A stretch of DNA of 64,000 nucleotides from Flavobacteriales bacterium (GTDB lineage Bacteria > Bacteroidota > Bacteroidia > UBA10329). The notes below the pieces were generated by a model. It was not told where the DNA came from, did no database searches, and saw only the letters and a program-made list of their open reading frames with translations. This document shows, piece after piece, positions 1-59,107 of this stretch. The stretch is taken from NCBI GenBank assembly GCA_016124845.1, contig WGMW01000003.1:27824-91823 (forward strand), written 5' to 3'. Position numbers and translations under genes: made by a program. Position 1 is the first letter of the stretch. Each line of letters starts with the position of its first letter.

Positions 1-1291
1 ACACCTTCTCGCTCATCTCGTCCGTTATCTCGAACGTGGATTGCAGGTCGGCACCCGTTTTCTTCACCACCTCATCCATAATTGCCTTGTACAGCGAATT
101 CGTGCCTGGGTCGTTGAACTGACTGGCAATCGTTCCATAAACAGGAACATCCTCGTCCTTCATATCCCACAACTGGCGGTTGCGCTTGTACTGCTTCTTC
201 ACATCGCGAAGCGCATCCAACGCACCGCGCTTATCGAACTTGTTGATGGCCACCAGATCGGCAAAATCAAGCATGTCGATCTTCTCCAACTGCGTGGCCG
301 CTCCGAACTCAGGTGTCATCACATACAACGAAACATCGCTGTGATCCATGATCTCCGTATCGCTCTGGCCAATTCCCGAAGTTTCGAGAATGATCAGGTC
401 GTAATGCGCGGCCTTCAGGATATCCACCGCTTCCTGCACGTGCTTGCTCATCGCCAAATTGCTCTGGCGCGTGGCCAACGAACGCATAAAAACACGCGGG
501 TTTCTGATGGCGTTCATGCGGATACGGTCGCCCAAAAGCGCACCGCCCGTTTTCCGCTTCGTTGGATCCACCGAAACGATCGCGATCGTCTTCTCTGGGA
601 AATCGATCAAGTACCTGCGCACCAGCTCATCCACCAACGATGATTTTCCTGCACCGCCCGTACCCGTAATTCCCAAAACGGGTACCCCTCCTGACCTCCC
701 CGAGGGGGAGGAAATCTGCTTCGCCAGTTCATCCGCATACTTTGCGTGAAATCCCTCATTATCATTCTCCGCAATCGTAATAAGCCGCGCAATTGTGTTG
801 ACACTCGAAGGTTTCAACCTTCGAACTCCCTCCCCTTTGGGGAGGTCAGGAGGGGTCGTATCGCATTGCTCCACCATATCGTTGATCATGCCCTGCAGGC
901 CCATCTCGCGGCCATCGTCAGGGTGATAAATGCGCGAAATGCCGTACGCGTGCAGCTCTTGAATCTCTTCAGGCAGAATGGTTCCGCCACCGCCACCGAA
1001 AATCTTGATGTGCCCCGCGCCCTTCTCCTTCAGCAGGTCGTGCATGTACTTGAAATACTCCGTGTGGCCGCCCTGGTAACTCGTCATCGCAATGGCCTGC
1101 ACATCCTCCTGAATGGCGCAGTTCACCACTTCCTCCACGCTGCGGTCGTGCCCCAAATGGATCACCTCGCAGCCCGTGCTCTGTATGATCCTGCGCATAA
1201 TGTTGATGGCCGCATCGTGCCCGTCAAAAAGGCTGGCCGCGGTCACAATTCTGATCTTATTCTTCGGTCTGTATGGCGCTACTTCCTGCAT
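1..1291 (-). CDS. icmF: Fused isobutyryl-CoA mutase (IcmF-like), 5' part only. It has an N-terminal B12-binding domain and a MeaB/ArgK-type GTPase. The gene runs off the window start.
   Basis: My reverse-complement translation starts at an ATG at 1291..1289 and reads [30 protein letters not shown] (B12-binding DxHxx motif). A G-domain P-loop [12 protein letters not shown] and ETSGIGQSD follow. The ORF is absent from the track because it has no stop inside the window. The plus-strand ORFs 41..643 and 746..1324 are its antisense shadows. Confidence 0.8.
690..860. repeat. GC-rich palindromic element inserted in frame in the IcmF linker. It has inverted repeats of about 25 bp and internal hairpins.
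   Basis: CCCTCCTGACCTCCCCGAGGGGGAGG at 693-720 is nearly the reverse complement of CTCCCCTTTGGGGAGGTCAGGAGGGG at 832-858. Between them lies a second hairpin, TCGAAGGTTTCAACCTTCGA. The same GGGGAGGTCAG / CCCCTTTCAAGGGGAGG motifs recur at 42690-42835. Confidence 0.5.
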
Positions 1292-1339: not shown

Positions 1340-2440
1340 GATTCTTGCCCATAGGTAGCCTGCGCTGATTTCTATGACACGACTAAATTATCCTGATACG
1401 GTTTTTGGTTTTTTATCACAGCAAAAGCCCTGTGCAGTATCTTGTTTCTTACTGCATTCAAAACGCTCATTTTGTTTTTGCCCTCGGCTACTTTTCTCAG
1501 ATAATAGGTTCTTAGTTCACCGTCCAAACGGATGGAACTCATTGCGGCCAGATGAAGAATTCCTTTCAGGTCTCTATCAGCATAGTGCGACACCCTACTT
1601 CTGCCTCTGACCGATGTTCCGGATGAGTGTTCAAAAGGTACAACGCCAGCGTAACAGGCCATTTTACGCGGGTCGGATATGGAGATGAACCCGTTGGTCT
1701 TGTAGAGCAGATTCCAACAAAGGACCTTGCCGATGCCTGTAACCGTCCGCAGAAGTTTGCTCTGCTGATTCAGACTTTCATCCTGCTTCACCAGTTCATC
1801 CAGAGCTGTCTCTACGATCTAACATGCTTATTGAGATCTTTGATCAGTCCTCGATTGTTCCCTGTCAATGCTTTTTTGGTGGGACCATTGTCCAAAAGGT
1901 CAAAGTCTTTCTGTGCGCAAAGCGTCTGAGTCTTCATTTTTTTCAATCGTCTGCGTTCAGAGATCAGAACACCCAAGGCGTCTATCACCTTTCTTTTCGG
2001 TTTCCAGGGAGTGAGTTCCGCGTGGTTCTTTCCGATGAAATTGCAGATACGCTTGGCATCTGTCCGGTCATCCTTGCCCCTTACCAGTCCAAGGCTCTTG
2101 CTGATGTGCAGTGGGTTGATGACAAAGACTTTGAAACAATGGTCGCTCAACACACTCAGTAACGGCCAGTTGTACCTTCCGGTGTTCTCCATACCGATAA
2201 TGAAAAAGCCTTCATTCAAATGTTTCTTGAAGAACTTTCGAATGCTGCCGGTGGTGTTATCAATACGATGGTCATCGTAATTGCCGTCCGACCCCAAGCT
2301 GATGTCCAAGGTCTTTTTACTGATGTCCACTCCCACAAATACTTCATGTTTATTCATGATTTTGATTTTAAGAGGTCTACTTAAGGAGAAGGAAGGATAC
2401 ACAGTGGAACTTAACTCCTATAATGGGTCGTGGGTCCGAA
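1340..2440 (-). mobile_element. IS110-family insertion sequence with a disrupted transposase. Boundaries are approximate.
   Basis: Two adjacent minus-strand ORFs cover the two halves of an IS110-type transposase. IS110 elements lack terminal inverted repeats, so the ends cannot be fixed by eye. Confidence 0.6.
1372..2402 (-). pseudogene. IS110-family transposase split into two ORFs by a frameshift or stop. The N-terminal DEDD domain is at 1812..2402 and the C-terminal domain at 1372..1791.
   Basis: The N-terminal ORF reads MNKHEVFVGVDISKKTLD...NTGRYNWPL, typical of the IS110 N-terminal catalytic domain. The C-terminal ORF reads CYAGVVPFEHSSGTSVRGRSRVSHYADRDLKGILHLAAMSSIR, typical of the C-terminal domain. 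The two are in different frames and separated by about 20 bp. Confidence 0.7.
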
Positions 2441-5641: not shown

Positions 5642-6047
5642 GCTCTCGTTATATAAAGTTTTCTCTTGAAGGGTTTGGTCATGTCACCACGCATTCAACA
5701 ATGCGACATGATCTTTCAAATCTGATAAATTCTTCCGTGCCGAAAGTCTTAAGGCTTCCGCTGTTTTAAGGGTTTGGAAGGAGGTTCTATGAATTGGATT
5801 CAACAGAAAATCCCACAACTACAAATAAAGGACATTGAAAGTATGACCTTTTCAGCCCATCGGTTTTAGAAAGAACAAGGGGTATAAACATGGAAAATCC
5901 CAAGGATGGTCAGAGGGTTGGTCTCTATTCGGATTTGTTCGTTCGCTTCACGGTCTGGTTATGGAGTCCATGGAAAATCATCCTTTCGACCAGGAAAGAC
6001 GAGAGGATTGAACCTTGCGCCAAATGGATTGTTTACCTTCCACCATG

Positions 6048-6677
6048 AAGTATTCCATCGTTATAGTATCTATCATTCTCATCGGAGCGATGAGTATTTT
6101 CGGAACCACCAAAAACGAACAGAAAATGAGCAGCAGCGAGGCCGCATTGGAGAAAGCAACTTTCGGAGCAGGGTGTTTCTGGTGTGTGGAGGCCATGTTT
6201 CAGGACATCAAAGGCGTTACCAGCGTGGTGTCTGGCTACAGTGGCGGACACGTGAAAAATCCGTCTTACAAGGAGGTTTGCACGGGAAGAACGGGCCATG
6301 CGGAGGTCATTCAAGTGACCTACGACCCCGATATTGTCTCCTACGAAACGCTGCTGGAGGCCTTCTTCCTCTCGCACGACCCAACGCAACTCAACCGCCA
6401 AGGCGCGGATGTAGGTACGCAGTACCGCTCGGTGATCTTCTACCACACGGCTGTGCAACAGCAGTTGGCAGAGGAGAAAAAGGCGGCACTGAACAGGGAA
6501 GATGCCTTCGGTGCACCAGTGGTAACTGAGATCTCAGCGTTTGAAACGTTCTACCCAGCGGAAGATTACCATCAGGATTACTACGCCATCAACCCCAACC
6601 AGCCGTACTGCTCACGCGTGGTGGGCCCCAAACTGGACAAGTTCAGGAAGGTGTTTAAGGACAAACTCAAGCACTAA
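6048..6677 (+). CDS. msrA: Peptide methionine sulfoxide reductase MsrA with a signal peptide.
   Basis: GAGCFWCVEAMF is the catalytic GCFWC motif, followed by HAEVIQVTYDP. The ORF track starts at 6015. MKYSIVIVSIILIGAMS at 6048 is the more likely start. Confidence 0.85.
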   Translation, partial: KYSIVIVSIILIGAMSIFGTTKNEQKMSSSEAALEKATFGAGCFWCVEAMFQDIKGVTSVVSGYSGGHVKNPSYKEVCTGRTGHAEVIQVTYDPDIVSYETLLEAFFLSHDPTQLNRQGADVGTQYRSVIFYHTAVQQQLAEEKKAALNREDAFGAPVVTEISAFETFYPAEDYHQDYYAINPNQPYCSRVVGPKLDKFRKVFKDKLKH

Positions 6678-7081
6678 CCTCTCAGGTGCCGCCACCCTGA
6701 GCCTGCCCCGTTGCAGAACGGGGTTTCAGGGTCTAAACCAACTAATTCATCCGCCTCCGAGAAACCCAACCGGGCATTCGTCAAAGTCTCCTCATCAAAC
6801 CAATCAGCAGCAAGGTCATCCAAATTTGGATTGGCTTCGCTGATAAGATTGAACTTCCATTCACGGTGCCACCGTTTCAGTTGCTTTTCGCGGGAAATGG
6901 CCTGCGTCATATCGGGGAAATCCTCGTAATACAAAAGGTATTTACAGTTGTATTTCGAAGCGAATTCGGAACCCGTACCAACCTTATGTCTCAACATTCG
7001 CTTTTCCAGATTACCTGTTACACCGATATACAGCACGGTTCGTTCATAGTTGCTGATGATATAGAAGTACCCTTTGATCAT
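6674..7081 (-). CDS. GIY-YIG nuclease-family protein.
   Basis: YFYIISNYERTVLYIGVTGNLEKRMLRHK carries the GIY-YIG signature. Its end overlaps the msrA stop. It lies between msrA and a duplicated msrA 3' fragment. Confidence 0.7.
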   Translation of the reverse strand: MIKGYFYIISNYERTVLYIGVTGNLEKRMLRHKVGTGSEFASKYNCKYLLYYEDFPDMTQAISREKQLKRWHREWKFNLISEANPNLDDLAADWFDEETLTNARLGFSEADELVGLDPETPFCNGAGSGWRHLRG

Positions 7082-7132
7082 GGCCTATCAAAGTTAGTCT
7101 CCGTTTCAATCTTCTCAAACGTATCAGGTCGT

Positions 7133-7325
7133 GTCACCCTGAACTCGTTTCAGGGTCTGTGGTTACAAGGTTCTATGTGGATTCAGATGCTGAAACAAGT
7201 TCAGCATGACGCTTCGAGTTATCACACTGCATACGAGAGCGTGTCACCCTGAACTTGTTTCAGGGTCTATCCAATTTGGAACTATGGAATAGATGCTGAA
7301 TCCGCCTGAGGCGGACAGCATGACG
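7133..7325. repeat. Cluster of four hairpin repeats from the two-hairpin element family, in the GTCACCCTGAAC(T/A)(T/C)GTTTCAGGGTC and ATGCTGAAACAAGTTCAGCATGAC forms.
   Basis: Hairpins at 7133-7158, 7185-7211, 7241-7268 and 7291-7325. The last has an extra inner palindrome, CCGCCTGAGGCGG. Confidence 0.7.
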
Positions 7326-7346
7326 CTCCGATGGAGGTTAACAGAG

Positions 7347-7447
7347 GATTACTGCGCCATCAACCCCAACCAGCCGTACTGCTCACGCGTGGTAGGCCCC
7401 AAACCGGAGAAATTCAGAAAGGTGTTTAAGGATAGGTTGAAGAACTA
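7347..7447 (+). repeat. Duplicated 3'-terminal fragment of msrA of about 100 bp.
   Basis: GATTACTGCGCCATCAACCCCAACCAGCCGTACTGCTCACGCGTGGT...GGTGTTTAAGGA...TAA aligns to 6575-6677 at roughly 85% identity. Confidence 0.75.
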
Positions 7448-8506: not shown

Positions 8507-9976
8507 TTAGTTATGAAACTCAAAATCCCCATCCTTCACCTTCTTGGTAGCGCGCATGTAATTGAAAGTGAAATCGGGCCAAACGGAGGTGTTCTTGCCC
8601 GTTTTGGAGATGTACCAACTGTTGCAGCCGCCCACAGCCCACACGGTGGTGGCCAGTTTGCGCTGTATGTCCGCGTTGTAGGTTTGCTGCACTTCGGGCT
8701 TCACATCCAGCGCCTTAGCGTGGTGGCGTTGCAGCGCTTTCAGGCATTCGATGGTGTATTGTACTGCAGCCTCTATCATAATGATCATGCTGGTGTGGCC
8801 CAGTCCCGTGTTGGGGCCAATGAGCATGAACATGTTCGGGAAACCGCTCACCACCGTTCCGAGATACGCTTCGGGGCCGTCCTTCCAAACATCCAGCAGT
8901 TGCTGCCCGTCCTTGCCCGAAACCTTGAACCATGTGGGGAAATCGGCCGCCTCGAACCCTGTGGCGTAAATGATCACATCCACCTTGGTCTCGCGGCCAT
9001 CCTTGCCCAGTAGGCCGCTTTCGGTAATGCGCTCAATGCCTTCGGTGTGCAGTTGCACGTTCTCCTTGGCAATGGCAGGGTAGAACACGTTGGATGGCAG
9101 AATGCGCTTGCAACCGGGACTGTAGTTCGGGGTCAGTTTCTCGCGCAGTTCGGGGTCTTTGATGCCTTTTTTCAAATGACGTTTTCCGATGCCTGCAATG
9201 AGTTTCGTCCATTTCGGATTAAACACGATGAGGTTCACCGTGAATTCGTTCTGCCAATAGATGCGCCAACGGTACAGTTTCTGAACCAACGGAAGGTGTT
9301 TGAAAAGCCACTTTTCGAAGCCTTTCATTTCTCGGTCTGGTTTGGGGATGACCCACGCAGGTGTGCGCTGATAAAGGTGCAGTTCCGCAACGGTATCGAC
9401 TATGTTCGGTACAATTTGAACTGCGCTGGCACCCGTGCCCACCACGGCCACTTTCTTGCCTTTCAAGTCTACGTCATGCCGCCATTTCGAAGAATGGAAA
9501 TGCGGCCCTTTGAAATCATTGATTCCTTCCAAATTCGGGAACACGGGACGGTTGAGCGGCCCCATGCCGTTTATCCACTTGTTGCATTTAAAACTGGTGC
9601 CATCCGCCAAGTTGATAGTCCACTCGGAAGTGGCTGCATCATAATCGCCACCCAGCACCGATTTCCCGTAACGGATGTACGGCTCCAGCCCGTATTTCTG
9701 CACGCAATGCTTGGTGTAATCGTATATCTCTCTGTGATTGGCGAACATGCGGCTCCAGTTCGGATTGGGTTCAAACGAGTAGGAGTAGAGGTGCGAGTGC
9801 ACATCGCAGGCCGCACCCGGATAGGTGTTGTCGCGCCACGTGCCGCCCACATCGTCAGAACGTTCGAGAATCAGGAAATCCTTGAAGCCGTTTTCGAGCA
9901 GTTTGATGCCCATGCAAACGCCCGCAAATCCGGTTCCTACAACTACAATGTCAACTTTCGATGGAAGTTCGTTCAC
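8507..9976 (-). CDS. Baeyer-Villiger / flavin-containing monooxygenase (class B).
   Basis: VVGTGFAGV is the FAD GxGxxG. FKGPHFHSSKWRHD matches the BVMO fingerprint FxGxxxHxxxW. VAVVGTGASAVQ is the second, NADP-binding GxGxxG. Confidence 0.75.
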   Translation of the reverse strand: MNELPSKVDIVVVGTGFAGVCMGIKLLENGFKDFLILERSDDVGGTWRDNTYPGAACDVHSHLYSYSFEPNPNWSRMFANHREIYDYTKHCVQKYGLEPYIRYGKSVLGGDYDAATSEWTINLADGTSFKCNKWINGMGPLNRPVFPNLEGINDFKGPHFHSSKWRHDVDLKGKKVAVVGTGASAVQIVPNIVDTVAELHLYQRTPAWVIPKPDREMKGFEKWLFKHLPLVQKLYRWRIYWQNEFTVNLIVFNPKWTKLIAGIGKRHLKKGIKDPELREKLTPNYSPGCKRILPSNVFYPAIAKENVQLHTEGIERITESGLLGKDGRETKVDVIIYATGFEAADFPTWFKVSGKDGQQLLDVWKDGPEAYLGTVVSGFPNMFMLIGPNTGLGHTSMIIMIEAAVQYTIECLKALQRHHAKALDVKPEVQQTYNADIQRKLATTVWAVGGCNSWYISKTGKNTSVWPDFTFNYMRATKKVKDGDFEFHN

Positions 9977-25011: not shown

Positions 25012-25141
25012 TGAAGTTTACAGAGTTTATAAAGTTGATTAAGAGATAAGATTTGCAGAACGCGGTTCCCCCTTTACAAAGGGGGTGTCGAGAAACGAGA
25101 CGGGGGATTTAATTAGTTGAAAAAGAGTGAATACATTTTAT

Positions 25142-27547: not shown

Positions 27548-30500
27548 GTGAGCTTTCAGAAGGAGGATATGACCTTTTGGAAAGAGGGTATGGGGTTTTG
27601 GAAGGTGCATATTAATTCATCTTATGTTCACTTTTCCCATAATAGTTTGCATATTGTCAAACCATTGATCTACAATACTTCACCGGCAATGAAAACCACA
27701 CTATTTCATATTCCGCCCATACGACTCACAGCGGCAGTGCTTGAAAAGAAATTGAAAGAAGAGATTGAAACAGAAAACAAGTTTCAAAATGGGGTTTGGT
27801 CAGTGCAAACGAAAGAACATGGATTGCTTGTGGACCTTTCCCAGTTACGTTGGGTTGAGTTCGGGGCTGCTGCTCAATTGTTGTTGTTAATTGAAAGTGC
27901 CTTAAAGCAAGATGTGTCTGTGGATATTGCAATGCCTCTGGATCAACCTTCTTCCGGTGAGAATAAGAAAATGTTAGAAATCCAAATTTCCAATCCAAGG
28001 GTTCATCGACAGATGCAAAATGTGGTTGGCCAACGTAGAGTTGCAAGGAACTTTCTGTATCACATACAGTTTGAACGAGCGGCTATGTGTTACCATGTTG
28101 AAACTGGGGATGTACGAATAATTCGAAAATGCGATTTCCGTTCTGGAAAACCACTGATTTATGATGAGCAAAACGTTCTTGAGCGCGCCAATGTTACGGA
28201 ATCTGATTTCGAATCGAAAAAGACTGATGAAATAAGCTATAAGGCAATTGTACCATTGACTTGGGTTCAAGAGTTGGAAGATAGTCTTGAGGTGAAGAAT
28301 CTAAAAGAGTTTTTGCACGACATTATCGGCAATGAGGAGAAAGGGTTGGCCAAAATTGATGCGCGCTCGATTACAGGTGTTGTGCTAAATGAGTTGGTGA
28401 AAAATTTGAAAGAGCATGCCAACCCATTAGGTGAGAGTTCAACTACCCATGCATTACTTGGGGTAATTCTATTGCCGAACTCAGTGATTGATGAGAACTC
28501 AGTTGGAAACAATGAAAGTTTTTTTAGCTGGCTAAAAGAGGGATATGACCATCATCTCGAGATTTATTTCGGAGATACTGGTCAAGGAGTTGTCAATTCT
28601 CTTAAGAAACAATTTGCCTTATCTGAACAGTCATCGACAATGACTGATGATAATATAGTTCTTTGGGCGTTTGATAAATGGTATAGTAGGAAATCAGAAA
28701 GATTTAGAGGGACTAAAGGATTGTACCGTATTCAGCGAATCGTGAATAAGTACGATGGGTTAATGTCGATTCGCTCTGCTAGGGTTGAAGCCGGTTATCA
28801 AAAAGGTGGATACGATGGCCCTGCGAGGAAGTTTTCCGCAAATGAGTTAGGGTACATGCCGGGTTCTTTCATCAAAATGACCATGGTGCCTTATAGGGAA
28901 CTCGCTAAGGTCAATCCGCCTTTAACAACACCTACAGGAAAAACGCCAGGAGTGATAGTTGAGCGTGTTGAGATCACTGCCAATGATTTACGAGTAGATA
29001 ACTTTTTTGAAAAGCAACACATCGAGCTTGAAGATAGATTCAAGAGCATTAAGGATAGAACTGCGACCGTCTTTATTTTTTTGGATTTCAAACTTGAATC
29101 TATTCAACCAATTTCTGAGAAACTGGTGGAGGATATTCTCAATTCATTAACTCAGTTAAGGCATCCGAATCCATTGGTTGTTTATGGTTTTCCTGAGCAA
29201 TATGGATATGAGAAACTAGAAGGATGCACCGATTCCGTGAATGAGTACTTACGAAGAACATTGGTGGAAAGCGGTCTAAATTTCAACGAGGAAGATTCTA
29301 CAATTCAAGATCCTGAATCTTTCGATAGCGAATTCGAGAATATTGCAGATCCGATTCTGGTTTTAACCAAGGAGGGAGAGCATTCGTGGTGCGGCATCTA
29401 CCAAGATGAAATCATGGAACTTCTTAAGGTCCTTTCTTCCGAAGGAAAGGTGGAAGCTACGTCATACCTCTCTAATAAAGGGGGTAATGAAATTCTTGAA
29501 ATAAAGAAGTTTGTGAATAATGACCCGCTAGTTCATCAATATGCAAATGTGGATGGGAAGCTAATATGGGAACTGCTTTATGGTCTTAACGGTTTGATTA
29601 GATACTATGGAGACAAGTTGATTCAGGAACTTGAGAAACAAGTTTCAGAACAAAAAAAGGGCTATTGCGATATTAGTCCAAATCTGAGTTGGGTTAAGCG
29701 ATGGGTTAATATGGAAACCTTACTTGAATTTGAAGAAGATGGTTTCGGTATTGCTTTGACCTTGTTGTTCAAAAGTAGGCATGGAAATGCGCGTATAGAC
29801 TTGAAATCAATTAAAATTCTCGTTGATAATGAAGAGGCTAGAAAAATAGCGAAACCGTTCTGCAAATGGATGGGGATAGATGTTGATAAGATTGTTGTTC
29901 TAAGTGATGAAGTTGATAGAAGAATACCTCGAAGATCCCCCATTTTCAGCAGAGGGGATCAAGTGTTGATCTTAACAACTCTAATCTCCTCTTTTGAAAC
30001 GGTCAATCGCTTGGCGAAGACGGTGTACAGGGGACTTGCCCATCCGATTGCAATCCTCGGTTTAGTACAGCCCAAAACCCAAGGTTCAGTGAATATATGG
30101 GGACATGATGAACTTGAGATTCTGTCTTTGGCTGAATACGATTTATCTGTTACTCCAATGATGGAATCAATTAAGAGTGGAGTCAAGTTCATTGAGCCGT
30201 ATAGTTATGAATCGATAATAGCGAAGACAAAAGAGGCCTTGATATCAACGGACTTAGGGCATCGCAATCAAGATCTTGATGAGGTACTTGAAATGGTGGA
30301 GAAGGGAAGTGCATTGCATTTTAGTCATGTTGGTAAGAATGCAGGAAGACATTTCACTTTTTACCTAAGTGCAATTGATTTTCTAGCAAAAAATGATGAA
30401 GTCATTATGCAGCGTTACTATGATGAGATTGACAGTTGGGCCGAAAGTCAAGGGATAGAAGACTTTGAAATTTGGACACCAACACCGGTACTCAAGGTTA

Positions 30501-32701
30501 ATCACCTAGAACAAATCTCAAAGCACTTGGAGGAAAGATATCACAAGTATAGTGCTGAATTGGCGGTTTGTGTTGCAAGAAAAGTTATCAAGAGAAACAA
30601 CGTACTTGGGAACTGGGTGTTTTATAACGAGAAAATGCACCGTGGAAGTAAATCCGACAATGTCTTGATAATTGATTGGGGTAGTTTGAATGGAACCACG
30701 GTTCAGCAAATGGTCAATTTTGCTGCTTCGGAGGCAAAGACCAACATTAAGGTTTGCATCCTGTTCTCTCAATTATGGAAGCCTGAGCAAGAGATGCTTG
30801 AGAAAATTGTTCAGGTAAAGCGCAATCCTAGGGTTGAAAATATTCCAGTTGACATATTTACAAATAGCGTCAAAGTTGCTGAGTCGGAGTCGGTGGAAGA
30901 CCTTTCGTCAACCGTGTCGGTTAAATTCCTTTACAGGCTGCCATTGCGTTATTTTGAAATGGAGGAATGCCCGGTATGTGCCCAAATTGAAGCTTTAAAG
31001 CAGTTTGAGGTTCCCAATAAATTGATCAATGATTTTAATGTTTCCCGAAAGGAACGACTTCAAATACGAGATAGGACAACAGAGGTCAATCATAGACCAA
31101 GGGATTTTTACGGTGAGCAACTAACGGGGTCAATCATCTCTGAGATGATGAAGTTCAAGGTTTTGCTTGATGAAGCCTTGTTGTCAACAGAAAAGCGATT
31201 CTTGGTTGTGGAGCATCTAAGGAAACTGGAAGAAGGTTTCCAAGTGGGAAAAATTCAAGGCAATACGGTCGTCCAAGCCGTCATTTATTTTTTGTCGGTT
31301 GAAAAGATATGGATGCACCGCCCACCTTTGGAGTTTCGAATTGCGCGCGATTTAATTGCTCAAATCAGCTTAAAGATTGCTTTAGCTGAGTCTACTCCAA
31401 TGCAACAGCAACTAAAGACTCGATCAAATGTCGTCCGAATAAAGTTTGCTGCGGTAACCGTACTGCGTTCTGCGGATAAAGTTCTGTTTATTGAGAACTT
31501 GGGAGGTATTTTTAGAAGTGCTTTTATTGAAGAAAAGTTTTCCGAAGCAATCGTTCAGAATCTGTTTTATCACTTGCATTCTTTCATTACGCGAGATTAT
31601 CATTCCAGTCAAGAATACTATGATACAATCATCCAAGAGTTGAATGACATAAGGCTGATAGAGGGTATTTCAGATTCTATGCAAGATGCAACTCAATTTT
31701 TAGAACTTATAACCGAAAAACGAAAAACTGGACTTAGAATTCCTTTTGATTCTAAACTGGCGGTAGTTAAAAGTTTAATGGTGCAGAGAAAAAGGAACTT
31801 TGACAGAAAGTACAACCATTATGACATAATTGAACGCTACCGCGCACTTAGCCCAGCATATAGGGGGAAAATTGAGAATTTTATTCAAGGAGTAAACAAT
31901 GATCAGTCGTTTGTGACAACAGATTACTTCCAAAGTTGGTGTCAGAAATTGATGACCGACTGGAAATATGTTGCACAATACCTGAATGATGTGATCTTCG
32001 GTCACCTGGAAAAAATCAAAGACCTCTTTGATAGTAAGAGTTTTAATGTCTATTACATGTTTAGGAGGGATTTGGAAGAGGCAATGCGGCCTGGAGTTGT
32101 TATTGGAAGTAATGATGACTTTACAATTTTGGTCAAACTTATTCAGGATGAACCCAGTGTTTTATTAGAAAAAAATGTATTTGAAAAATACATTGGTCTC
32201 TTAGAAAGCATGTATGTAAATTATTTGAGGTTTGACAAGCGTCAGTTGGAGAACAACTCAGTCTTAAATACTATTTTGTCTCAATTGAATGTTGATTTGG
32301 TTGATAATGTCAATCACGCATTGGAATCATTCAAGGCAATATGTAAGACTGGGCTCGACTACAGTTTTAGTAGGGATGAAGCAACTATTTATCAGGCGTT
32401 TATTTTTGAACCCCTTCTAAAGAATCTGCTTCAACACATTTTCGAAGATAATATTCACGAAAAGGATGAAGATGAACAGTCGCAAACCCCACTTAGTGTT
32501 CAGGTTTCGCTTAAACAGATTGATAATTCATTTGAACTTCTGATTGAGAACTCGGTATCAGATCCAGAACAAAAGAACAACCTGATGGGTGGACTGTCTA
32601 AGTGGCGAGAACAAATATTGGATTTTGATGGAGAGTTGAAGTGGGGTTTTAATAAAGATAGGACCAAATTTTATCGACAGATTATTTTATTGAAATTTTA
32701 A
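27548..32701 (+). CDS. Giant multidomain protein of 1717 aa (1670 aa from the ATG at 27689). It has an N-terminal GHKL/histidine-kinase-like ATPase domain, two PRTase-like Rossmann domains and a long alpha-helical C-terminal region. No family assignment.
   Basis: GHKL N-box GVVLNELVKNLKEHANP, G1 box EIYFGDTGQGVV and G2 box GTKGLYRIQRIV, with canonical spacing. PRTase-like cores: GDQVLILTTLISSFETVNRLAKTV...IAILGLV, and SDNVLIIDWGSLNGTTVQQMVNFAASEAKTNIKVCILFS. The second aligns residue-for-residue with the HGPRT core [21 protein letters not shown]...VKVASLL. A single CPVC motif is present. GC is about 38%, against 50-55% in the flanks. Confidence 0.7.
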   Translation: MSFQKEDMTFWKEGMGFWKVHINSSYVHFSHNSLHIVKPLIYNTSPAMKTTLFHIPPIRLTAAVLEKKLKEEIETENKFQNGVWSVQTKEHGLLVDLSQLRWVEFGAAAQLLLLIESALKQDVSVDIAMPLDQPSSGENKKMLEIQISNPRVHRQMQNVVGQRRVARNFLYHIQFERAAMCYHVETGDVRIIRKCDFRSGKPLIYDEQNVLERANVTESDFESKKTDEISYKAIVPLTWVQELEDSLEVKNLKEFLHDIIGNEEKGLAKIDARSITGVVLNELVKNLKEHANPLGESSTTHALLGVILLPNSVIDENSVGNNESFFSWLKEGYDHHLEIYFGDTGQGVVNSLKKQFALSEQSSTMTDDNIVLWAFDKWYSRKSERFRGTKGLYRIQRIVNKYDGLMSIRSARVEAGYQKGGYDGPARKFSANELGYMPGSFIKMTMVPYRELAKVNPPLTTPTGKTPGVIVERVEITANDLRVDNFFEKQHIELEDRFKSIKDRTATVFIFLDFKLESIQPISEKLVEDILNSLTQLRHPNPLVVYGFPEQYGYEKLEGCTDSVNEYLRRTLVESGLNFNEEDSTIQDPESFDSEFENIADPILVLTKEGEHSWCGIYQDEIMELLKVLSSEGKVEATSYLSNKGGNEILEIKKFVNNDPLVHQYANVDGKLIWELLYGLNGLIRYYGDKLIQELEKQVSEQKKGYCDISPNLSWVKRWVNMETLLEFEEDGFGIALTLLFKSRHGNARIDLKSIKILVDNEEARKIAKPFCKWMGIDVDKIVVLSDEVDRRIPRRSPIFSRGDQVLILTTLISSFETVNRLAKTVYRGLAHPIAILGLVQPKTQGSVNIWGHDELEILSLAEYDLSVTPMMESIKSGVKFIEPYSYESIIAKTKEALISTDLGHRNQDLDEVLEMVEKGSALHFSHVGKNAGRHFTFYLSAIDFLAKNDEVIMQRYYDEIDSWAESQGIEDFEIWTPTPVLKVNHLEQISKHLEERYHKYSAELAVCVARKVIKRNNVLGNWVFYNEKMHRGSKSDNVLIIDWGSLNGTTVQQMVNFAASEAKTNIKVCILFSQLWKPEQEMLEKIVQVKRNPRVENIPVDIFTNSVKVAESESVEDLSSTVSVKFLYRLPLRYFEMEECPVCAQIEALKQFEVPNKLINDFNVSRKERLQIRDRTTEVNHRPRDFYGEQLTGSIISEMMKFKVLLDEALLSTEKRFLVVEHLRKLEEGFQVGKIQGNTVVQAVIYFLSVEKIWMHRPPLEFRIARDLIAQISLKIALAESTPMQQQLKTRSNVVRIKFAAVTVLRSADKVLFIENLGGIFRSAFIEEKFSEAIVQNLFYHLHSFITRDYHSSQEYYDTIIQELNDIRLIEGISDSMQDATQFLELITEKRKTGLRIPFDSKLAVVKSLMVQRKRNFDRKYNHYDIIERYRALSPAYRGKIENFIQGVNNDQSFVTTDYFQSWCQKLMTDWKYVAQYLNDVIFGHLEKIKDLFDSKSFNVYYMFRRDLEEAMRPGVVIGSNDDFTILVKLIQDEPSVLLEKNVFEKYIGLLESMYVNYLRFDKRQLENNSVLNTILSQLNVDLVDNVNHALESFKAICKTGLDYSFSRDEATIYQAFIFEPLLKNLLQHIFEDNIHEKDEDEQSQTPLSVQVSLKQIDNSFELLIENSVSDPEQKNNLMGGLSKWREQILDFDGELKWGFNKDRTKFYRQIILLKF
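27635..27655 (+). promoter_or_regulatory. Candidate Bacteroidetes-type -7 promoter element upstream of the giant ORF.
   Basis: ATAATAGTTTGCATATTG is about 35 bp upstream of the ATG at 27689 and loosely resembles the TAnnTTTG -7 consensus. This is weak evidence. Confidence 0.2.
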
Positions 32702-32705
32702 GTCC

Positions 32706-34355: not shown

Positions 34356-34391
34356 CAATAAGGCGTTTGGTAAATAAATGAGAGAAAAAAT

Positions 34392-35321
34392 ATGATGGAA
34401 AATTTTGCTGACCGACTAATACGTTCAGTTGAACGTAAAGCTACTCCGTGTATAGTTGGGCTGGACCCCCGTTTAGAACTCATTCCAGATTTTATTCTTA
34501 CAAATGCTCAGAAAGGGTCGCTGAATGAGGCTATAGCTTCAGCAATCACCACATTTCATACAATCATATTAGACTCAATCCAAGACCTTGTTCCTTGTGT
34601 AAAACCTCAAATTGCCTTCTATGAGCAATATGGCCTACCGGGGATGATTGCATTTGAGAACACAGTTAAGGCTGCAAAGGAGCGAGGACTTCTTGTGATT
34701 GTGGATGCCAAAAGAAATGACATTGGTTCAACCGCAACTGCTTATGCAAATGCGTTTCTTGGTGCCTCGGTTGTGTTTGGAGAGCGTAAACCAATGTTTG
34801 ATGTTGATGCTGTGACGGTAAATGGATACATGGGTGAGGAAACTTTGGTGCCGTTTGTAAATGTTTGCAAGGATTATGGAAAGGGAATTTTTGTCCTTGT
34901 CAAAACATCAAACCCTGGTTCAGGTGATGTTCAGGACCAAATCTTGGAGGAGTCGAAGCTTCCGCTTTATGTAAAGATGGCACGAACGGTTAATAGGTTA
35001 GGAATGGATATGGTCGGTAAAAACGGTTACAGTTCGGTAGGAGCGGTCGTAGGGGCAACTTATTCGGAAGCAGCAAAAGAATTGCGCGCTGAAATGTACA
35101 ACAACGTTTTTTTAGTGCCAGGCTATGGAGCACAAGGAGCCTCTGGAAAGGATGTCGTACATAATTTCAATTCAGATGGTCTGGGAGCCTTAATAAATGC
35201 ATCTCGAAGTATCACTTTTGCTGGTTATGATAAGGATGTTTCGATGATAGAATTTGAAAGTATTATTCGCCAGAATACGGAGGATATGGTGGTAGATGTT
35301 CGAAATAGTTTGAATAGTTAG
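34392..35321 (+). CDS. Orotidine-5'-phosphate decarboxylase, type 2 (PyrF family-2 architecture).
   Basis: PCIVGLDP. VIVDAKRNDIGSTA matches the DxKxxDIxxT signature. VTVNGYMG, VLVKTSNPGSGDVQ, GAVVGAT and LVPGYGAQG are all type-2 OMPDC hallmarks. Confidence 0.7.
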   Translation: MMENFADRLIRSVERKATPCIVGLDPRLELIPDFILTNAQKGSLNEAIASAITTFHTIILDSIQDLVPCVKPQIAFYEQYGLPGMIAFENTVKAAKERGLLVIVDAKRNDIGSTATAYANAFLGASVVFGERKPMFDVDAVTVNGYMGEETLVPFVNVCKDYGKGIFVLVKTSNPGSGDVQDQILEESKLPLYVKMARTVNRLGMDMVGKNGYSSVGAVVGATYSEAAKELRAEMYNNVFLVPGYGAQGASGKDVVHNFNSDGLGALINASRSITFAGYDKDVSMIEFESIIRQNTEDMVVDVRNSLNS

Positions 35322-35327
35322 TCTGAG

Positions 35328-42044: not shown

Positions 42045-43031
42045 GTGTATTTAGGAGCCGCCAGTTGCATAACGTATCAGGACACGTTTGGAGGTGAAAA
42101 ACCTTGGAGCGCGTTGGTGGAAGCAAATGTGGAAAGCCAACTCATTCAGCCTGACTACAAGGAATTTGTAAGCCCTGCGATGCTGCGTAGAATGAGCAGC
42201 GCGCTGAAAATGGGCGTGGCAGGAGGGAAGTCGTGCTTGCAGAAATCAGGTTTGGAAACCTGTGATGCCATTACGGTAGGTACAGGACTTGGCTGTGTGA
42301 GAGACACCCTGCGCTTTATGAAAGTGATGTACGAGGAAGCTGAGACAGGACTTTCCCCGACCTCGTTCATTCAGTCAACACACAATTCTATTGCTGGGCA
42401 GATTGCGTTGCTGCTGGGAAATCATGGTTACAACATGACGCATGTGCAAGGCGGGTTGTCGTTGGGCTATGCGCTCTCCGATGCTGAACTGCTTATTGGA
42501 GAAGGTGATGCCGAAACGGTGCTTGTCGGTGCGGTGGATGAGAAAACAGATGAGTTGGTTGAACTGCTTACCAAGCTTGCTGCCACCTCCAACTACGAGT
42601 TGCCAGCCATTGGAGAAGGTGGAGCATTCTTCTTGGCATCCAAAGAGAAGTTGGGTTCTTCCGTTGCGAAAGTGGTGGAGTTGAGTTTGGTAAATGACCC
42701 CTCCGTCCGCCTGAGGCGGACACCTCCCCTTTCAAGGGGAGGAACTGGCGCGCTGATCCAAGGTCAGAGCGAAGAGCAACTCCCCTCCTTGGAAGGAGGG
42801 GGTGGGGGAGGTCAGATTGACCTCCTCCTTTCAAACACAGGCGAAGGCTTTAATTACGTGAAGTATTCTGGAGAGCATTTCACTTCTGCTGGTTTTGGGT
42901 TGTTTATGGCATTGAAAGCATTTGAAGCTGGTACAGTAAACTTTAATGGCTCTTCCGTTGAACCAAAAAGCATTCTTGTCCGCCACAGTCTGTTCGGACA
43001 GGAGTTCAGTATTCTATTAGAGAAGGTTTGA
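42045..43031 (+). CDS. KAS-like protein without the catalytic Cys, carrying an in-frame repeat-element insertion.
   Basis: KAS-like N-terminal region (TSFIQSTHNSIAGQIALLLGNHGYNMT). An odd Gly/Pro/Arg-rich insert reads VNDPSVRLRRTPPLSRGGTGALIQGQSEEQLPSLEGGGGGGQIDL. Confidence 0.55.
   Translation: MYLGAASCITYQDTFGGEKPWSALVEANVESQLIQPDYKEFVSPAMLRRMSSALKMGVAGGKSCLQKSGLETCDAITVGTGLGCVRDTLRFMKVMYEEAETGLSPTSFIQSTHNSIAGQIALLLGNHGYNMTHVQGGLSLGYALSDAELLIGEGDAETVLVGAVDEKTDELVELLTKLAATSNYELPAIGEGGAFFLASKEKLGSSVAKVVELSLVNDPSVRLRRTPPLSRGGTGALIQGQSEEQLPSLEGGGGGGQIDLLLSNTGEGFNYVKYSGEHFTSAGFGLFMALKAFEAGTVNFNGSSVEPKSILVRHSLFGQEFSILLEKV
42690..42835. repeat. GC-rich palindromic element inserted in frame. It belongs to the same family as 690-860.
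   Basis: Shares the hairpin TCCGCCTGAGGCGGAC with the 7291-7325 repeat. CCTCCCCTTTCAAGGGGAGG and GGGGGAGGTCAGATTGACCTCCTCC match the IcmF insert. Confidence 0.55.
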
Positions 43032-57563: not shown

Positions 57564-58634
57564 TTGGAAATGAACGACAAACCACTATCAGGACTGAAAG
57601 TATTGGAGTTGGCATCCGTGTTGGCGGGGCCAGCGGTGGGCATGTTCTTGGCGGAGCTTGGTGCGGAGGTGATCAAGATTGAGAATCCGAAAACAGGCGG
57701 AGATGTAACGCGGAGTTGGAAGCTGACCACCGAAGACCCGAACGCGGACATCAGCGCGTATTTCGCGTCTGTGAACTATGGAAAGCAGCACCGATTTCTT
57801 GATCTGAAGAACGCTTCTGAATTGGCGGAAGTGCAGCAATTGGCTGCGAAAGCCGACATCATCATTGCCAATTACCGAACAGGACAGGCCGAAGCTTTCC
57901 AGTTGGATTTTGATGCCATCAACAAACACAATCCGAAGGTCATTTATGGAAACATCACGGGGTTTGGGGCGGAGGAAGGTCGCCCTGCGTTCGATGTGGT
58001 GTTGCAGGCCGAAACGGGCTATATGTTCATGAACGGTCAGCCGGAAAGCGAACCGACCAAGATGCCCGTGGCGCTGATCGATGTGCTGGCTGCGCATCAA
58101 TTGAAGGAAGCCATTCTGTTAGCGCTGCTCCAGCGCGAAAAGACAGGAAACGGTGCGTTTGTGGAAGTTTCGCTGTTCGATGCGGCTGTTTCCGCATTGA
58201 CGAATCAGGCCAGCAATTGGCTGATGAACAGTCACATTCCGCAGCGCATGGGTTCGTTGCATCCGAATATTGCGCCTTATGGCGAGATATTGAACACGCA
58301 GGACGGCAAGCAGATCGTGCTGGCCATTGGTTCCAATGCGCAGTTCGAAGCACTCTGTGGAGTATTGGGTTTGGAGGAATTGCCAGCGGATGAACGGTTT
58401 GAGACCAATCAGCACCGCGTGGAAAACCGAACCGAGTTGCAACAGCAACTTCAGCAAAAGGCCAGTTCGATGAACTGTGATATTTTGATGGATTCGTTCT
58501 TGGAAAGGAACATTCCCGCAGGGGTTATCCGAAACTTGAAGGAGGTTTTTGCCACGGAAGCAGCCCAAGCTTTGGTACGAAAGGAAGGGGAAACCGAACG
58601 TGTTTCGCAAATTGCGTTCAAAATGCGCTCATGA
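57564..58634 (+). CDS. Family III CoA-transferase (CaiB/BaiF).
   Basis: LSGLKVLELASVLAGPAVGMFLAELGAEVIKIE matches the N-terminal signature. Confidence 0.8.
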   Translation: MEMNDKPLSGLKVLELASVLAGPAVGMFLAELGAEVIKIENPKTGGDVTRSWKLTTEDPNADISAYFASVNYGKQHRFLDLKNASELAEVQQLAAKADIIIANYRTGQAEAFQLDFDAINKHNPKVIYGNITGFGAEEGRPAFDVVLQAETGYMFMNGQPESEPTKMPVALIDVLAAHQLKEAILLALLQREKTGNGAFVEVSLFDAAVSALTNQASNWLMNSHIPQRMGSLHPNIAPYGEILNTQDGKQIVLAIGSNAQFEALCGVLGLEELPADERFETNQHRVENRTELQQQLQQKASSMNCDILMDSFLERNIPAGVIRNLKEVFATEAAQALVRKEGETERVSQIAFKMRS

Positions 58635-59107
58635 GTCTGCGTTGGGAATGGAAACGGTTCGATGACCTTACGGCCGATGAGGTTTACACGATCCTGTGCG
58701 TGCGGCAGCAGGTGTTTGTGCTTGAGCAGGAATGTCTGTACTTGGATGCCGATGGCAAAGACCGTCAGTCGTTCCATTTGATGGGTTTTGATGGGGATGA
58801 GCTGGTGGCCTACGCACGTATTCTGGATGCGGGTGTGAGCTACGAGGAGGTTTCGATGGGACGCATTCTCACCACCGAAAAGGTGCGTGGAAAAGGTGCT
58901 GGAATGGAACTGATGGAAGTAGGCTTGAAGAAGATCACGGAACACTACGGGAACGTTCCTGTCCGCATTTCAGCACAAACGTACCTACTTGATTTCTATG
59001 AGAAGTTCGGTTTCCGTTCCACGGGAAAGGAATACTTGGAAGATGAGATCCCGCATACGGAGATGCTAAGAAACCCCCTCGATCCCCCAAAGGGGGAAGC
59101 TGACTGA
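58631..59107 (+). CDS. GNAT N-acetyltransferase (ElaA-like).
   Basis: FHLMGFDGDELVAYARIL...RGKGAG. The C-terminus ends in a CCCCCAAAGGGGG hairpin. Confidence 0.65.
   Translation: MSLRWEWKRFDDLTADEVYTILCVRQQVFVLEQECLYLDADGKDRQSFHLMGFDGDELVAYARILDAGVSYEEVSMGRILTTEKVRGKGAGMELMEVGLKKITEHYGNVPVRISAQTYLLDFYEKFGFRSTGKEYLEDEIPHTEMLRNPLDPPKGEAD

Follow-up and report, generated by a model that had tools for sequence, protein, structure and literature searches.

The gene of an IcmF-type fused isobutyryl-CoA mutase lying at the left end of the window (the whole stretch of DNA analysed here, 64,000 nt long) carries, between its B12-binding domain and the P-loop of its MeaB GTPase domain, a long inverted repeat. 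The question raised by this locus is whether a mobile palindromic element has been inserted in frame into the gene, as an earlier note on this DNA had proposed, or whether the two arms of the repeat are of a different nature. The gene was identified by translation and by its match to the solved IcmF 4XC6 (E = 5e-153); it starts at position 1291 and continues past the left end of the window (position 1). Its product is most closely related, at 91% identity, to 'methylmalonyl-CoA mutase family' proteins of Flavobacteriales MAGs, with PF02310 and PF03308. The inverted repeat itself is real: the repeat search placed its 28-nt arms, 93% complementary and 117 nt apart, at 684-711 and 829-856, and the 18-mer GGGGAGGTCAGGAGGGGT occurs in the window exactly twice, once per strand, against 0.02 occurrences expected by chance. 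Translation confirmed that the reading frame is open across the whole motif region and that the peptides quoted in the note are correct. Each arm also contains a perfect 7-bp hairpin of its own (CCTCCCC-N3-GGGGAGG), and a perfect 9-bp palindrome lies at 805-824. The features of this region are the following.

1..1291, minus strand: 5' portion of the gene for the IcmF-type fused isobutyryl-CoA mutase, with B12-binding domain, linker and MeaB GTPase
685..711, minus strand, the gene's sense strand: triplex motif 2 (site 2), perfect class II, stem 7, loops 3 and 3
712..828, minus strand: native coding sequence of the first MeaB helix, between both motifs (ortholog and 4XC6 alignment)
805..824, no strand assigned: perfect 9-bp palindrome TCGAAGGTT-GA-AACCTTCGA adjoining motif 1 and encoding RRLKPS
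829..855, plus strand, antisense to the gene: triplex motif 1 (site 1), perfect class II, stem 7, loops 3 and 3

Each arm is a complete unit in its own right, consisting of a pyrimidine (Y) arm, a short loop, a complementary purine (R) arm, a 3-nt spacer and a tail that mirrors the R arm. This is the class II pattern of C-stem, loop of 3-6, G-stem, loop of 3 and G-stem (Holder et al. 2015, NAR 43:10126, PMC4666352), which we applied with 6-15 nt for the Y stem, 1-6 nt for its loop, a complementary R stem, about 3 nt for the second loop and a further R stem in mirror (antiparallel) orientation. At site 1 the Y arm CCTCCCC (829-835) is followed by the loop TTT (836-838), the R arm GGGGAGG (839-845), the spacer TCA (846-848) and the mirror tail GGAGGGG (849-855); at site 2, read on the other strand, the Y arm occupies 711-705, the loop CTC 704-702, the R arm 701-695, the spacer TCA 694-692 and the mirror tail GGAGGGG 691-685. 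Both 685-711(-) and 829-855(+) thus conform to the class II architecture, and neither contains a single violation of the allowed triads (C:G*G, T:A*A, T:A*T). The 7-nt stems of the window lie at the short end of the class, where chance matches become frequent if a mismatch is tolerated (PMC4666352); both IcmF copies are, however, perfect.

The tails of the two units are directed outward, and the near-perfect 28-nt inverted repeat exists because the two copies in the window currently share their stems. Both mismatches between the arms fall in the 3-nt hairpin loops, TTT in one copy and the complement of CTC in the other, and this difference argues against a single simple conversion tract. Each site is translated into a 10-residue peptide, that of site 2 lying immediately N-terminal of the P-loop strand, and the copies occupy two surface linkers that flank the first MeaB helix, where they appear in the protein as Pro/Gly/Ser/Arg-rich loops. 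Little weight can be given to the palindrome at 805-824, since by our own estimate about 1-2 such hairpins are expected by chance per 64 kb; orthologs have palindromes of only 4-5 bp at this position. Another palindrome, GTACCCGT/ACGGGTAC at 660-685, was set aside as an accident of complementary Val-Pro-Val and Thr-Gly-Thr codons, and an Rfam scan of positions 500-1000 (E up to 10) returned only a meaningless miRNA match.

The motifs are present in 12 of 88 IcmF orthologs, including those of Polaribacter and Flavobacterium, while the other 76 are free of any. They occur at the same two places, the antisense strand carrying site 1 and the sense strand site 2 without exception, and the frame is open in every variant. 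The DNA of site 2 is identical in one ortholog (L122), and its stems are identical in that of Polaribacter (L207). Site 1 is more variable. Its three segments read CCTCCCC/GGGGAGG/GGAGGGG in the window, CCTTCCC/GGGAAGG/GGATGGG in L122 and Polaribacter and CCCTCCCC/GGGGAGGG/GGGTGGGG in L001; the R arm and tail are GGGAAGG/GGTTGGG in L137 and GGGGAAGA/AGATGGGG in L212. The covarying ortholog versions also include TCTTCCCC/GGGGAAGA/AGAAGGGG. In the window and the orthologs alike, non-G positions of the site 1 tail always mirror A positions of the purine arm. Judged from these alignments, a change in one segment is matched in the other two, so that whole base triads switch (C:G*G to T:A*T), and the triad rule holds in the ortholog variants too, those with T-containing tails included.

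Between L122 and Polaribacter all 42 stem and tail nucleotides are identical, as compared with 8 of the 12 nucleotides in loops and spacers; third codon positions are identical in 14 of 14 cases inside the stems and in 33% in the flanks. The stems are thus unchanged where synonymous sites are saturated, and the loops drift. In both of these genomes one base triad differs between the two sites. The distribution among orthologs shows the motifs to be, at the level of sequence comparison, old residents of IcmF in a Flavobacteriales clade and not a recent 165-bp insertion. The phylogeny of the linker conflicts with that of its flanks (the window is nearest to L001 overall, while its linker resembles L122), so recombination or repeated replacement, and not compensatory substitution, could account for part of the apparent covariation. 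Site 1 brings almost no gain in length over the motif-free orthologs; it may have formed where it stands, out of a P..L.GE peptide already there, and not through an insertion. In a literature search we found no report of such motifs being kept at equivalent codons of orthologs in different genera while their triads co-vary.

Canonical motifs number four in the window against 0.1 in shuffled sequence, so that they are multicopy and commoner than in scrambled DNA, and all of them lie inside ORFs. The recurrence in a second CDS claimed in the earlier note was borne out, and a further copy was found at 59074-59097.

42045..43031, plus strand: chain-length-factor CDS (beta-ketoacyl-synthase); motifs span 42698-42828
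42698..42742, minus strand: triplex motif in the chain-length-factor CDS, its spacer expanded by a nested hairpin; absent from 81%-identical 293-aa orthologs
42782..42828, plus strand: second triplex motif of the chain-length-factor CDS, CCCCTCC-TTGGAA-GGAGGGG-GTG-GGGGAGG at 42782-42811
59074..59097, minus strand: fourth canonical motif, TCCCCC-ttt-GGGGGA-tcg-AGGGGG, in the last codons (NPLDPPKGEAD*) of the GNAT acetyltransferase ORF 58631..59107

The first chain-length-factor motif reads, on the plus strand, as the tail CCCCTCC (42698-42704), a nested hairpin GTCCGCC-TGA-GGCGGAC (42705-42721) seated inside the 3-nt spacer, CCTCCCC (42723-42729), the loop TTTCAA and GGGGAGG (42736-42742). The tail of the 42782-42811 motif also pairs with the native sequence downstream of it (GGAGGTCA-GAT-TGACCTCC), which has mutated toward the tail. 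This second motif occurs alone in orthologs L203 and L204 and is missing in L202, and close relatives carry empty, single-motif and double-motif alleles of the gene; on this comparison the motif-bearing stretch is a genuine insertion, present in some of them and absent from others. Triad covariation is seen at this site as well (L206 compared with the window).

We consider that the inverted repeat of IcmF represents two class II purine-type intrastrand triplex motifs on opposite strands, an old unit acting at the level of DNA, with a predicted triplex fold and carried by the protein as a neutral passenger; we put the probability of this reading at roughly 0.7. The most likely description of the unit is a structural repeat of single-stranded DNA that is tolerated as a Pro/Gly-rich loop. 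When its strand is exposed in replication, transcription or supercoiling, the Y:R hairpin would form, and the tail could turn back and lie antiparallel along the purine arm in G*G:C, A*A:T and T*A:T triads. Selection or structure-dependent conversion may maintain this three-part architecture, with loops, spacers and encoded residues left to drift. For the protein the units would be passengers in permissive linkers, while for the DNA they may be sites of local turnover, as suggested by the nested hairpins, the replacements and the flanks mutating toward complementarity.

A stronger proposition, namely that the motif pair in IcmF and the chain-length-factor motif are kept by natural selection on a single-stranded DNA triple helix folded within a coding gene, is in our judgement rather unlikely. 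If it is true, the triad covariation across genera would be the first comparative, evolutionary evidence that intrastrand DNA triplexes of the purine type are of consequence in living bacteria, and coding sequences could carry over their amino-acid code a conserved strand-specific signal of DNA structure, for instance one for recombination or for the pausing of replication or transcription. The fact that in this sample the triads co-vary while loops and residues drift makes a constraint by the triplex fold accessible to comparative genomics and oligonucleotide biophysics, and motifs in alignable genes provide a natural experiment in which orthologous copies can be compared over long distances. 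In-frame motifs in housekeeping enzymes also give rise to short indels rich in Gly/Pro and account for insertions in conserved proteins of different phyla, which annotators and structural biologists will see as 'low-complexity inserts'.

A long-range stem-loop under selection is the alternative that comes closest, improbable as it seems to us. In this case the two arms would pair with each other in mRNA or single-stranded DNA into an 18-28-bp stem around the helix-coding segment, so that translation or transcription would pause on its way from the B12 to the GTPase domain, or expression would be regulated. The predicted minimum-free-energy folds of the 201-nt region, which model Watson-Crick pairs only, do use a long outer stem and are far stabler than those of shuffled sequence (RNA -93.7 kcal/mol, z = -6.9; DNA z = -6.4); moreover, the arrangement with tails outward is kept in 12 of 12 motif-bearing orthologs, and both copies share their stems in the window, L212 and L209. 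The complementarity between the sites, however, is not conserved. It differs by a whole triad in L122 and Polaribacter, and the stems of the two sites are unlike in L001, L208 and L137, so that in all five of these orthologs it is lost and the local motifs are kept. The observed changes preserve each local motif and not the pairing between sites, and the only rule that accounts for the T-containing tails at site 1 is that of the purine-type DNA triplex, applied to the antisense strand. We therefore reject the long-range stem as a conserved feature.

Somewhat less probable again is the explanation that the palindromes are a by-product at the protein level, in which selection for flexible Pro/Gly-rich linkers would bring about palindromy through complementary codons (Pro CCN and Gly GGN, Leu CTC and Glu GAG) with no constraint on the nucleic acid. 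Codon choice alone can indeed encode LPKGE as a hairpin, LP.GK-like peptides stand at site 1 even in motif-free clade-B orthologs, and site 1, as noted, is hardly longer than in them. On the other hand, non-conservative replacements (P to H, E to K, G to E) occur among the residues encoded by tails and arms with the triad rule kept, the identity of the third codon positions in the stems far exceeds that in the flanks, and codon choice offers no account of the mirror tail. In addition, the same DNA unit is read in frame, with all three frames used, in unrelated proteins of other phyla (urocanase, MetRS, AA_kinase (an ArgB-type kinase), HflX, PrmC, E2 and GT4, all confirmed by Pfam).

The insertion of one mobile element of about 170 bp, of the MITE or Rickettsia-palindromic-element type, with terminal inverted repeats of 25-28 bp and adding about 55 aa in frame, is very improbable. 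The inverted repeat at both ends, the open frame, the Pro/Gly-rich ends and the recurrence in a second CDS would all suit such an element. The ortholog alignments rule it out: the inner 117 bp (712-828, 39 codons) align without gaps with about 200 orthologs and with 4XC6 (ALAQLITALEN) and are, by this alignment, the native N-terminal helix of MeaB, common to all orthologs and lying outside any insertion. The IcmF linker is only about 7-8 aa longer than in palindrome-free orthologs, site 1 contributing about +1 aa and site 2 about +6-8 aa, a net difference of about 8 aa in place of the 55 aa claimed. There is no target-site duplication at 684/856, where the flanks ...acgggt|ACCCCTCC and GGAGGGGT|cgtatc have no direct repeat in common, and in close orthologs the ends are not mutually complementary (71% in L001), yet each is a complete motif. 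The 'terminal repeats' of the earlier note are thus two separate 27-nt intrastrand triplex motif units, one per strand. For its claim of a single insertion, the refuting outcome that the note had named, a linker of equal length in palindrome-free species, is essentially what the alignment shows. Its description of GC-rich units that lie in frame, are read through and belong to a dispersed family stands; that of one 165-173 bp element does not. The practical message for the window is that the IcmF gene is intact and contains no 165-bp foreign element.

Just as improbable is an intragenic inverton, in which a recombinase would flip the 117-bp segment and so recode IcmF or switch it off: although the 28-nt repeat flanks exactly 39 codons and an IS110-family recombinase has left remnants 80 bp upstream of IcmF, the IS110 gene itself is broken into two ORFs, inversion in silico creates a stop codon, destroys the conserved helix and yields no alternative ORF, orthologs are without matched repeats, and the orientation is the same in 88 of 88 orthologs examined. 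Among the eight window ORFs covered by the Pfam scan, this IS110-family remnant is the sole transposase. Some contigs of relatives end within IcmF, the ends falling in the conserved mutase domain; as a sign of another repeat this was rejected, assembly breaks at paralogous sequence being the probable cause.

To our knowledge, the repeats called PIT, BoxC or TM are among the most abundant unexplained repeats of bacteria, have been assigned no function after 25 years, have so far been treated as intergenic, and have not been detected as triplexes in vivo. The window motifs resemble them in having the same class II architecture on one strand with only C:G*G, T:A*A and T:A*T triads, and in being multicopy, over-represented relative to shuffled sequence and tied to local sequence turnover; inverted pairs are frequent in both (5 of 18 loci in E. 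coli), and no transposase is linked to either. The class has been named PIT elements (Hoyne, Edwards, Viari & Maher 2000; Hoyne & Maher 2002) and, in E. coli, BoxC and TM/TMECO, and about 10^6 motifs were catalogued by Holder et al. (PMC4666352). The E. coli motif forms a stable triplex in isolated single strands only, and none was seen in duplex DNA or by in vivo DMS footprinting (PMC4666352). In contrast to TMECO, which has the 9-nt stem consensus CCCTCNCCC and is 'always located intergenically' in E. coli MG1655, the copies of the window have stems of 7-8 nt (CCTCCCC), all lie in ORFs and in frame, belong to a Flavobacteriales bacterium and, in IcmF, form a pair split by 117 bp of native coding sequence; the motifs hold the same codon positions in orthologs of different genera, with triad covariation. 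With their CCTCCCC/GGGGAGG stems they do not match the intergenic TMECO/BoxC pattern proper (CCCTCNCCC-N3-6-GGGNGAGGG-N3-GGGNGAGGG), so that, as far as sequence can tell, they share the class with TMECO but not that sub-family.

The likeness to Rickettsia palindromic elements (RPE; Ogata et al. 2000), drawn in the earlier note, is fair as an analogy, and it extends to intragenic REPs (Di Nocera et al. 2013, PMC3733652): both are short palindromic repeats that lie in frame in functional genes and add surface peptides, and several may lie in one ORF, often as inverted dimers (PMC3733652). It fails in that the IcmF orthologs keep the segment between the repeats, whereas RPE-1 units of about 100-150 bp are inserted whole, the unit of the window being 27 nt. 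REP and RPE families are, besides, tagged by GTAG or CGTC and linked to RAYT-type transposases, whereas neither tag adjoins either IcmF unit, and the mirror-repeat tail of the window unit is lacking in REPs. Classical H-DNA is approached in so far as GGGGAGG-TCA-GGAGGGG is a homopurine mirror repeat, the sequence requirement of H-DNA; the tract is, however, much shorter than classical ones, and the complementary pyrimidine arm always lies upstream on the same strand, so that one strand supplies all three segments. The small dispersed repeats of cyanobacteria, of about 20-30 nt, that Elhai et al. are said to have described in 2008 reportedly nest in one another and in hairpins. They look similar to the nested spacer hairpins at 42705-42721 and in L205 and L206, which is a lead only, and we know of no mirror or triplex rule for them.

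The exact 17-mer of the motif occurs in at least 120 DNA stretches across many phyla, and nearly all the matches listed are preceded by their own Y-arm hairpin. Among the loci of these matches in other genomes we collected 356 other asymmetric Y:R hairpins, of which 64 have a tail that obeys the triad rule in mirror register and one in direct register, as compared with a mean of 13 and a maximum of 23 with permuted tails. The literal motif and palindromic insertions in frame were also looked for in the literature, and nothing specific came up. Viral contigs gave only nine matches, eight of them with the full motif architecture, and were rejected as a carrier since there was no sign of enrichment. 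The copies within CDSs of other phyla show an apparent sense-strand bias of about 20:1, which is not seen in the window and may stem from the use of this exact 17-mer, with TGA on its opposite strand, as the query.

The inverted repeat lies in a minus-strand gene that starts at 1291 and reaches the left end of the window before it terminates, and whose product joins a B12-binding domain to a downstream MeaB-type GTPase. This product is closest (91% identity) to 'methylmalonyl-CoA mutase family' proteins from uncultured Flavobacteriales, and its homologue with a solved structure is IcmF, a fused isobutyryl-CoA mutase (4XC6, E = 5e-153). The repeat reported in the earlier note is real: two 28-nt arms at 684-711 and 829-856, spaced by 117 nt, are 93% complementary, the 18-mer GGGGAGGTCAGGAGGGGT occurs exactly twice in the 64 kb, once on each strand (0.02 expected), and each arm contains a perfect hairpin CCTCCCC-N3-GGGGAGG. 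Translation confirmed the open reading frame through the region and the peptides that the note had quoted.

Read 5' to 3' on the G-rich strand, each arm has the structure CCTCCCC / 3-nt loop / GGGGAGG / TCA / GGAGGGG, i.e., a hairpin, three bases and then the mirror image of its own purine arm. Since the two sites carry this unit on opposite strands, the 'inverted repeat' is in fact two oppositely oriented 27-nt copies with their tails outward. The motif finder detected four canonical copies in the window against 0.1 in shuffled sequence, and a fifth, modified copy is present; all five lie in frame inside open reading frames.

Copies of the motif in the window
829-855, plus strand: site 1, canonical, antisense to IcmF
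711-685, minus strand: site 2, canonical, sense to IcmF
42698-42742: fifth copy, chain-length-factor gene, the 3-nt spacer enlarged by a nested hairpin GTCCGCC-TGA-GGCGGAC
42782-42813: canonical, chain-length-factor (Ketoacyl-synt_2) gene
59074-59097: canonical, final codons of a GNAT acetyltransferase

Earlier work has described this architecture (C-stem, loop 3-6, G-stem, loop 3, G-stem) under several names: class II purine-type 'intrastrand triplex motif', PIT element (Hoyne et al. 2000), E. coli BoxC and TM/TMECO (PMC4666352). Across 5246 genomes the last study counted about 10^6 of these motifs, often as inverted pairs, and linked them with local sequence instability. It reports a stable triplex in vitro for the isolated motif strand and detected no triplex signal in duplex DNA or in footprinting in vivo; it also describes the motifs as lacking promoter and terminator activity and the E. 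coli one as 'always located intergenically' (PMC4666352). Our literature search found no description of intragenic, in-frame triplex motifs, although intragenic REPs and RPEs are already known (PMC3733652). The class of the IcmF feature is known and its setting is undescribed: the copies are in frame, lie on either side of a native helix, are conserved in position among orthologs and covary by triads.

The exact 17-mer GGGGAGGTCAGGAGGGG, searched in a set with a single genome for each bacterial species, gave at least 120 matches, those listed including Proteobacteria, Acidobacteriota, Bacteroidota, Chloroflexota, Patescibacteria, Planctomycetota and others; nearly every listed match is preceded by its own CCTCCCC arm. 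With the searched word left out, these loci contain 356 distinct asymmetric pyrimidine/purine hairpins, and 64 of these have a tail, three bases downstream, that follows the triad rule in the mirror register (direct register, 1/356; permuted tails, mean 13, maximum 23). In the low-GC genomes among the listed matches the unit lies in frame within long ORFs, in all three frames (GRSGG, GGQEG, GEVRRG). The Pfam-confirmed hosts are urocanase, methionyl-tRNA synthetase, an amino-acid kinase, an HflX-type GTPase, PrmC, a 2-oxoacid dehydrogenase E2 and a GT4 glycosyltransferase, and their domain matches are stretched at the insert. Several proteins at four loci from other phyla (L017, L036, L068 and L030) have more than one motif-derived insert, as in the L017 urocanase (two, one being LTPNPSPEERG), L036 (ISSPRGGGQEGA and ISSPRGGGREGA) and the L068 HflX (two); several in-frame copies per gene therefore appear common.

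The earlier note interpreted the IcmF feature as a single palindromic insertion of about 165 bp, or 55 aa. Alignment of the product with 120 database homologues and 80 metagenomic orthologs contradicts this. The 39 codons between the arms encode an ordinary, conserved helix, the first one in the MeaB domain (consensus ..IARLISAAEN..); 4XC6 has it too, as ALAQLITALEN. The palindromes are absent from most orthologs, and the linkers of palindrome-free orthologs are shorter by ~1 aa at site 1 and ~6-8 aa at site 2, an outcome that the note itself had named as refuting a 55-aa insertion. The observation therefore stands, while its interpretation was right only in part.

Among 88 IcmF orthologs with parsable DNA, 76 have a motif-free linker and 12 carry the motif, including Polaribacter, one Flavobacterium MAG and several Flavobacteriales MAGs. 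All 12 carriers have site 1 on the antisense strand, 32-38 nt past the MIN codons; site 2, where present, is on the sense strand immediately before the P-loop. The site 1 sequences vary, yet the Y-arm, R-arm and tail shift in concert.

Site 1 in the window and at orthologous loci (Y-arm; R-arm; tail)
Window: CCTCCCC; GGGGAGG; GGAGGGG
L122 and Polaribacter L207: CCTTCCC; GGGAAGG; GGATGGG
L001: CCCTCCCC; GGGGAGGG; GGGTGGGG
L210 / L211: CCCTTCCC; GGGAAGGG; GGGATGGG
L137: CCTTTCCC; GGGAAGG; GGTTGGG
L212: TCTTCCCC; GGGGAAGA; AGATGGGG

The window and L122/L207 differ here by a single triad change, C:G*G -> T:A*T, and at site 2 L001 has CTCCCCCT/AGGGGGAG/GAGGGGG instead of the window unit. In all variants the non-G positions of the tail (A or T) mirror the A positions of the purine arm, and both bases give triads permitted in the antiparallel purine motif according to the cited literature. 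The chain-length-factor site covaries as well (GGAGGGG/GGGGAGG in the window vs GGGGGAG/GAGGGGG in its relative L206).

Our best estimate is that the motif is a putative DNA-level structural repeat, neutral for the protein; selection on the triplex fold itself within coding sequence is less likely. A selected long stem pairing the two IcmF arms would agree with the very stable predicted fold, but the orthologs give it no support. The two sites have the same stems in the window, L212 and L209; they are one triad apart in L122 and Polaribacter and only 71% complementary in L001, so whatever constraint or homogenising process is at work targets each local three-part unit, not inter-site pairing. 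A purely protein-level explanation fails on both the synonymous-site and the mirror-tail patterns. Between L122 and Polaribacter only 33% of third positions in the flanking conserved codons are shared, i.e., synonymous sites are saturated, while over both motifs 42/42 stem and tail bases are identical (loops and spacers, 8/12) and the encoded residues change non-conservatively (P/H, E/K). The IcmF motifs thus appear to be old and structurally constrained, and the constraint or homogenising process acts on the nucleic acid rather than on the peptide. The T-containing site 1 tails fit the purine-type rule on antisense DNA and not a pyrimidine-type triplex in mRNA, and RNA does not form purine-type triplexes according to the cited literature; this points to DNA as the likely relevant molecule. 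A recoding inverton is excluded, as inversion of the segment yields a stop codon.

The near-perfect repeat of the window results from site 1 departing from the widespread L122/Polaribacter state at the three positions of one triad and so equalling its own site 2. Compensatory change or patchy conversion between the copies would each suffice; one simple conversion tract is disfavoured because the loops of the two copies differ. Over the whole region the nearest relative is L001 (88.8% nt), while the linker resembles L122 (80%), and this disagreement indicates that recombination played some part. Two metagenomic orthologs, L123 and L124, are identical over 312 compared flanking nt and differ solely at site 2 (LSLLGKTEKG vs LSLSREMGKG, equal length), apparently an example of highly local, rapid replacement. 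In IcmF of L212 (2160-2240) an in-frame TAA stands in place of a Gln codon of the relatives (WSL*ENVPGEFPF vs WNLQENVPGEFPF) and the same-frame ORF goes on; possible causes are a nonsense mutation, recoding and a sequencing error.

The recurrence of the motif in a second coding sequence, reported in the earlier note, holds for the chain-length-factor gene, and here orthologs provide clean evidence of true insertion. Orthologs with 81% identity (293 aa) are devoid of the entire 35-aa segment (ELSMTDAIN--AETDLVLS); others have the second motif alone (LPSWEGGVGGG), an independent QLPSFGGVGGG, or a double version whose spacers contain different nested hairpins. The native flank 3' of the motif changed from cttgtg to ctcctc in the window, lengthening the pairing with the motif tail. 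Directly after this gene lies a 209-aa ORF (43028-43657) with no Pfam match; in the related loci L202 and L205 a polysaccharide deacetylase gene occupies this place, so the ORF appears to be inserted into the aryl-polyene / flexirubin-type cluster. An intergenic hairpin at 25066-25110, CCCCCTTTACAAAGGGGG, with GGGGGA 16 nt beyond it, may be a degenerate relative of this motif class.

About 80 bp separate the IcmF start codon from an upstream IS110-family transposase that is split into two ORFs (1372-2402, minus strand; DEDD_Tnp_IS110 1812..2402, Transposase_20 1372..1791); L001 has a ~90-nt hairpin-rich element there instead. Palindromic repeats are known targets of IS110 elements. After the msrA gene (methionine sulfoxide reductase, 6015..6677, plus strand) come a small GIY-YIG nuclease ORF (6674..7081, minus strand; Pfam E = 1e-14), hairpins and a slightly diverged second copy of the msrA 3' end (~7336-7438), so that 6015-7440 looks like a GIY-YIG cassette inserted in the msrA end and supplying a replacement 3' end. 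The cassette shares its hairpin TCCGCCTGAGGCGGA (7301-7315) with the triplex-motif spacer, where it is nested at 42705-42721, and with L001, which has it shortly before IcmF (9890-9902). A low-GC island at 27548-35981 (GC 0.37-0.41 vs 0.475 for the window) with strong GC skew codes for a 1717-aa ORF, two OMP-decarboxylase-like proteins and a protein whose TCAD9 / aminoglycoside-phosphotransferase-like matches are weak; it is possibly a conflict or defence module gained by horizontal transfer.
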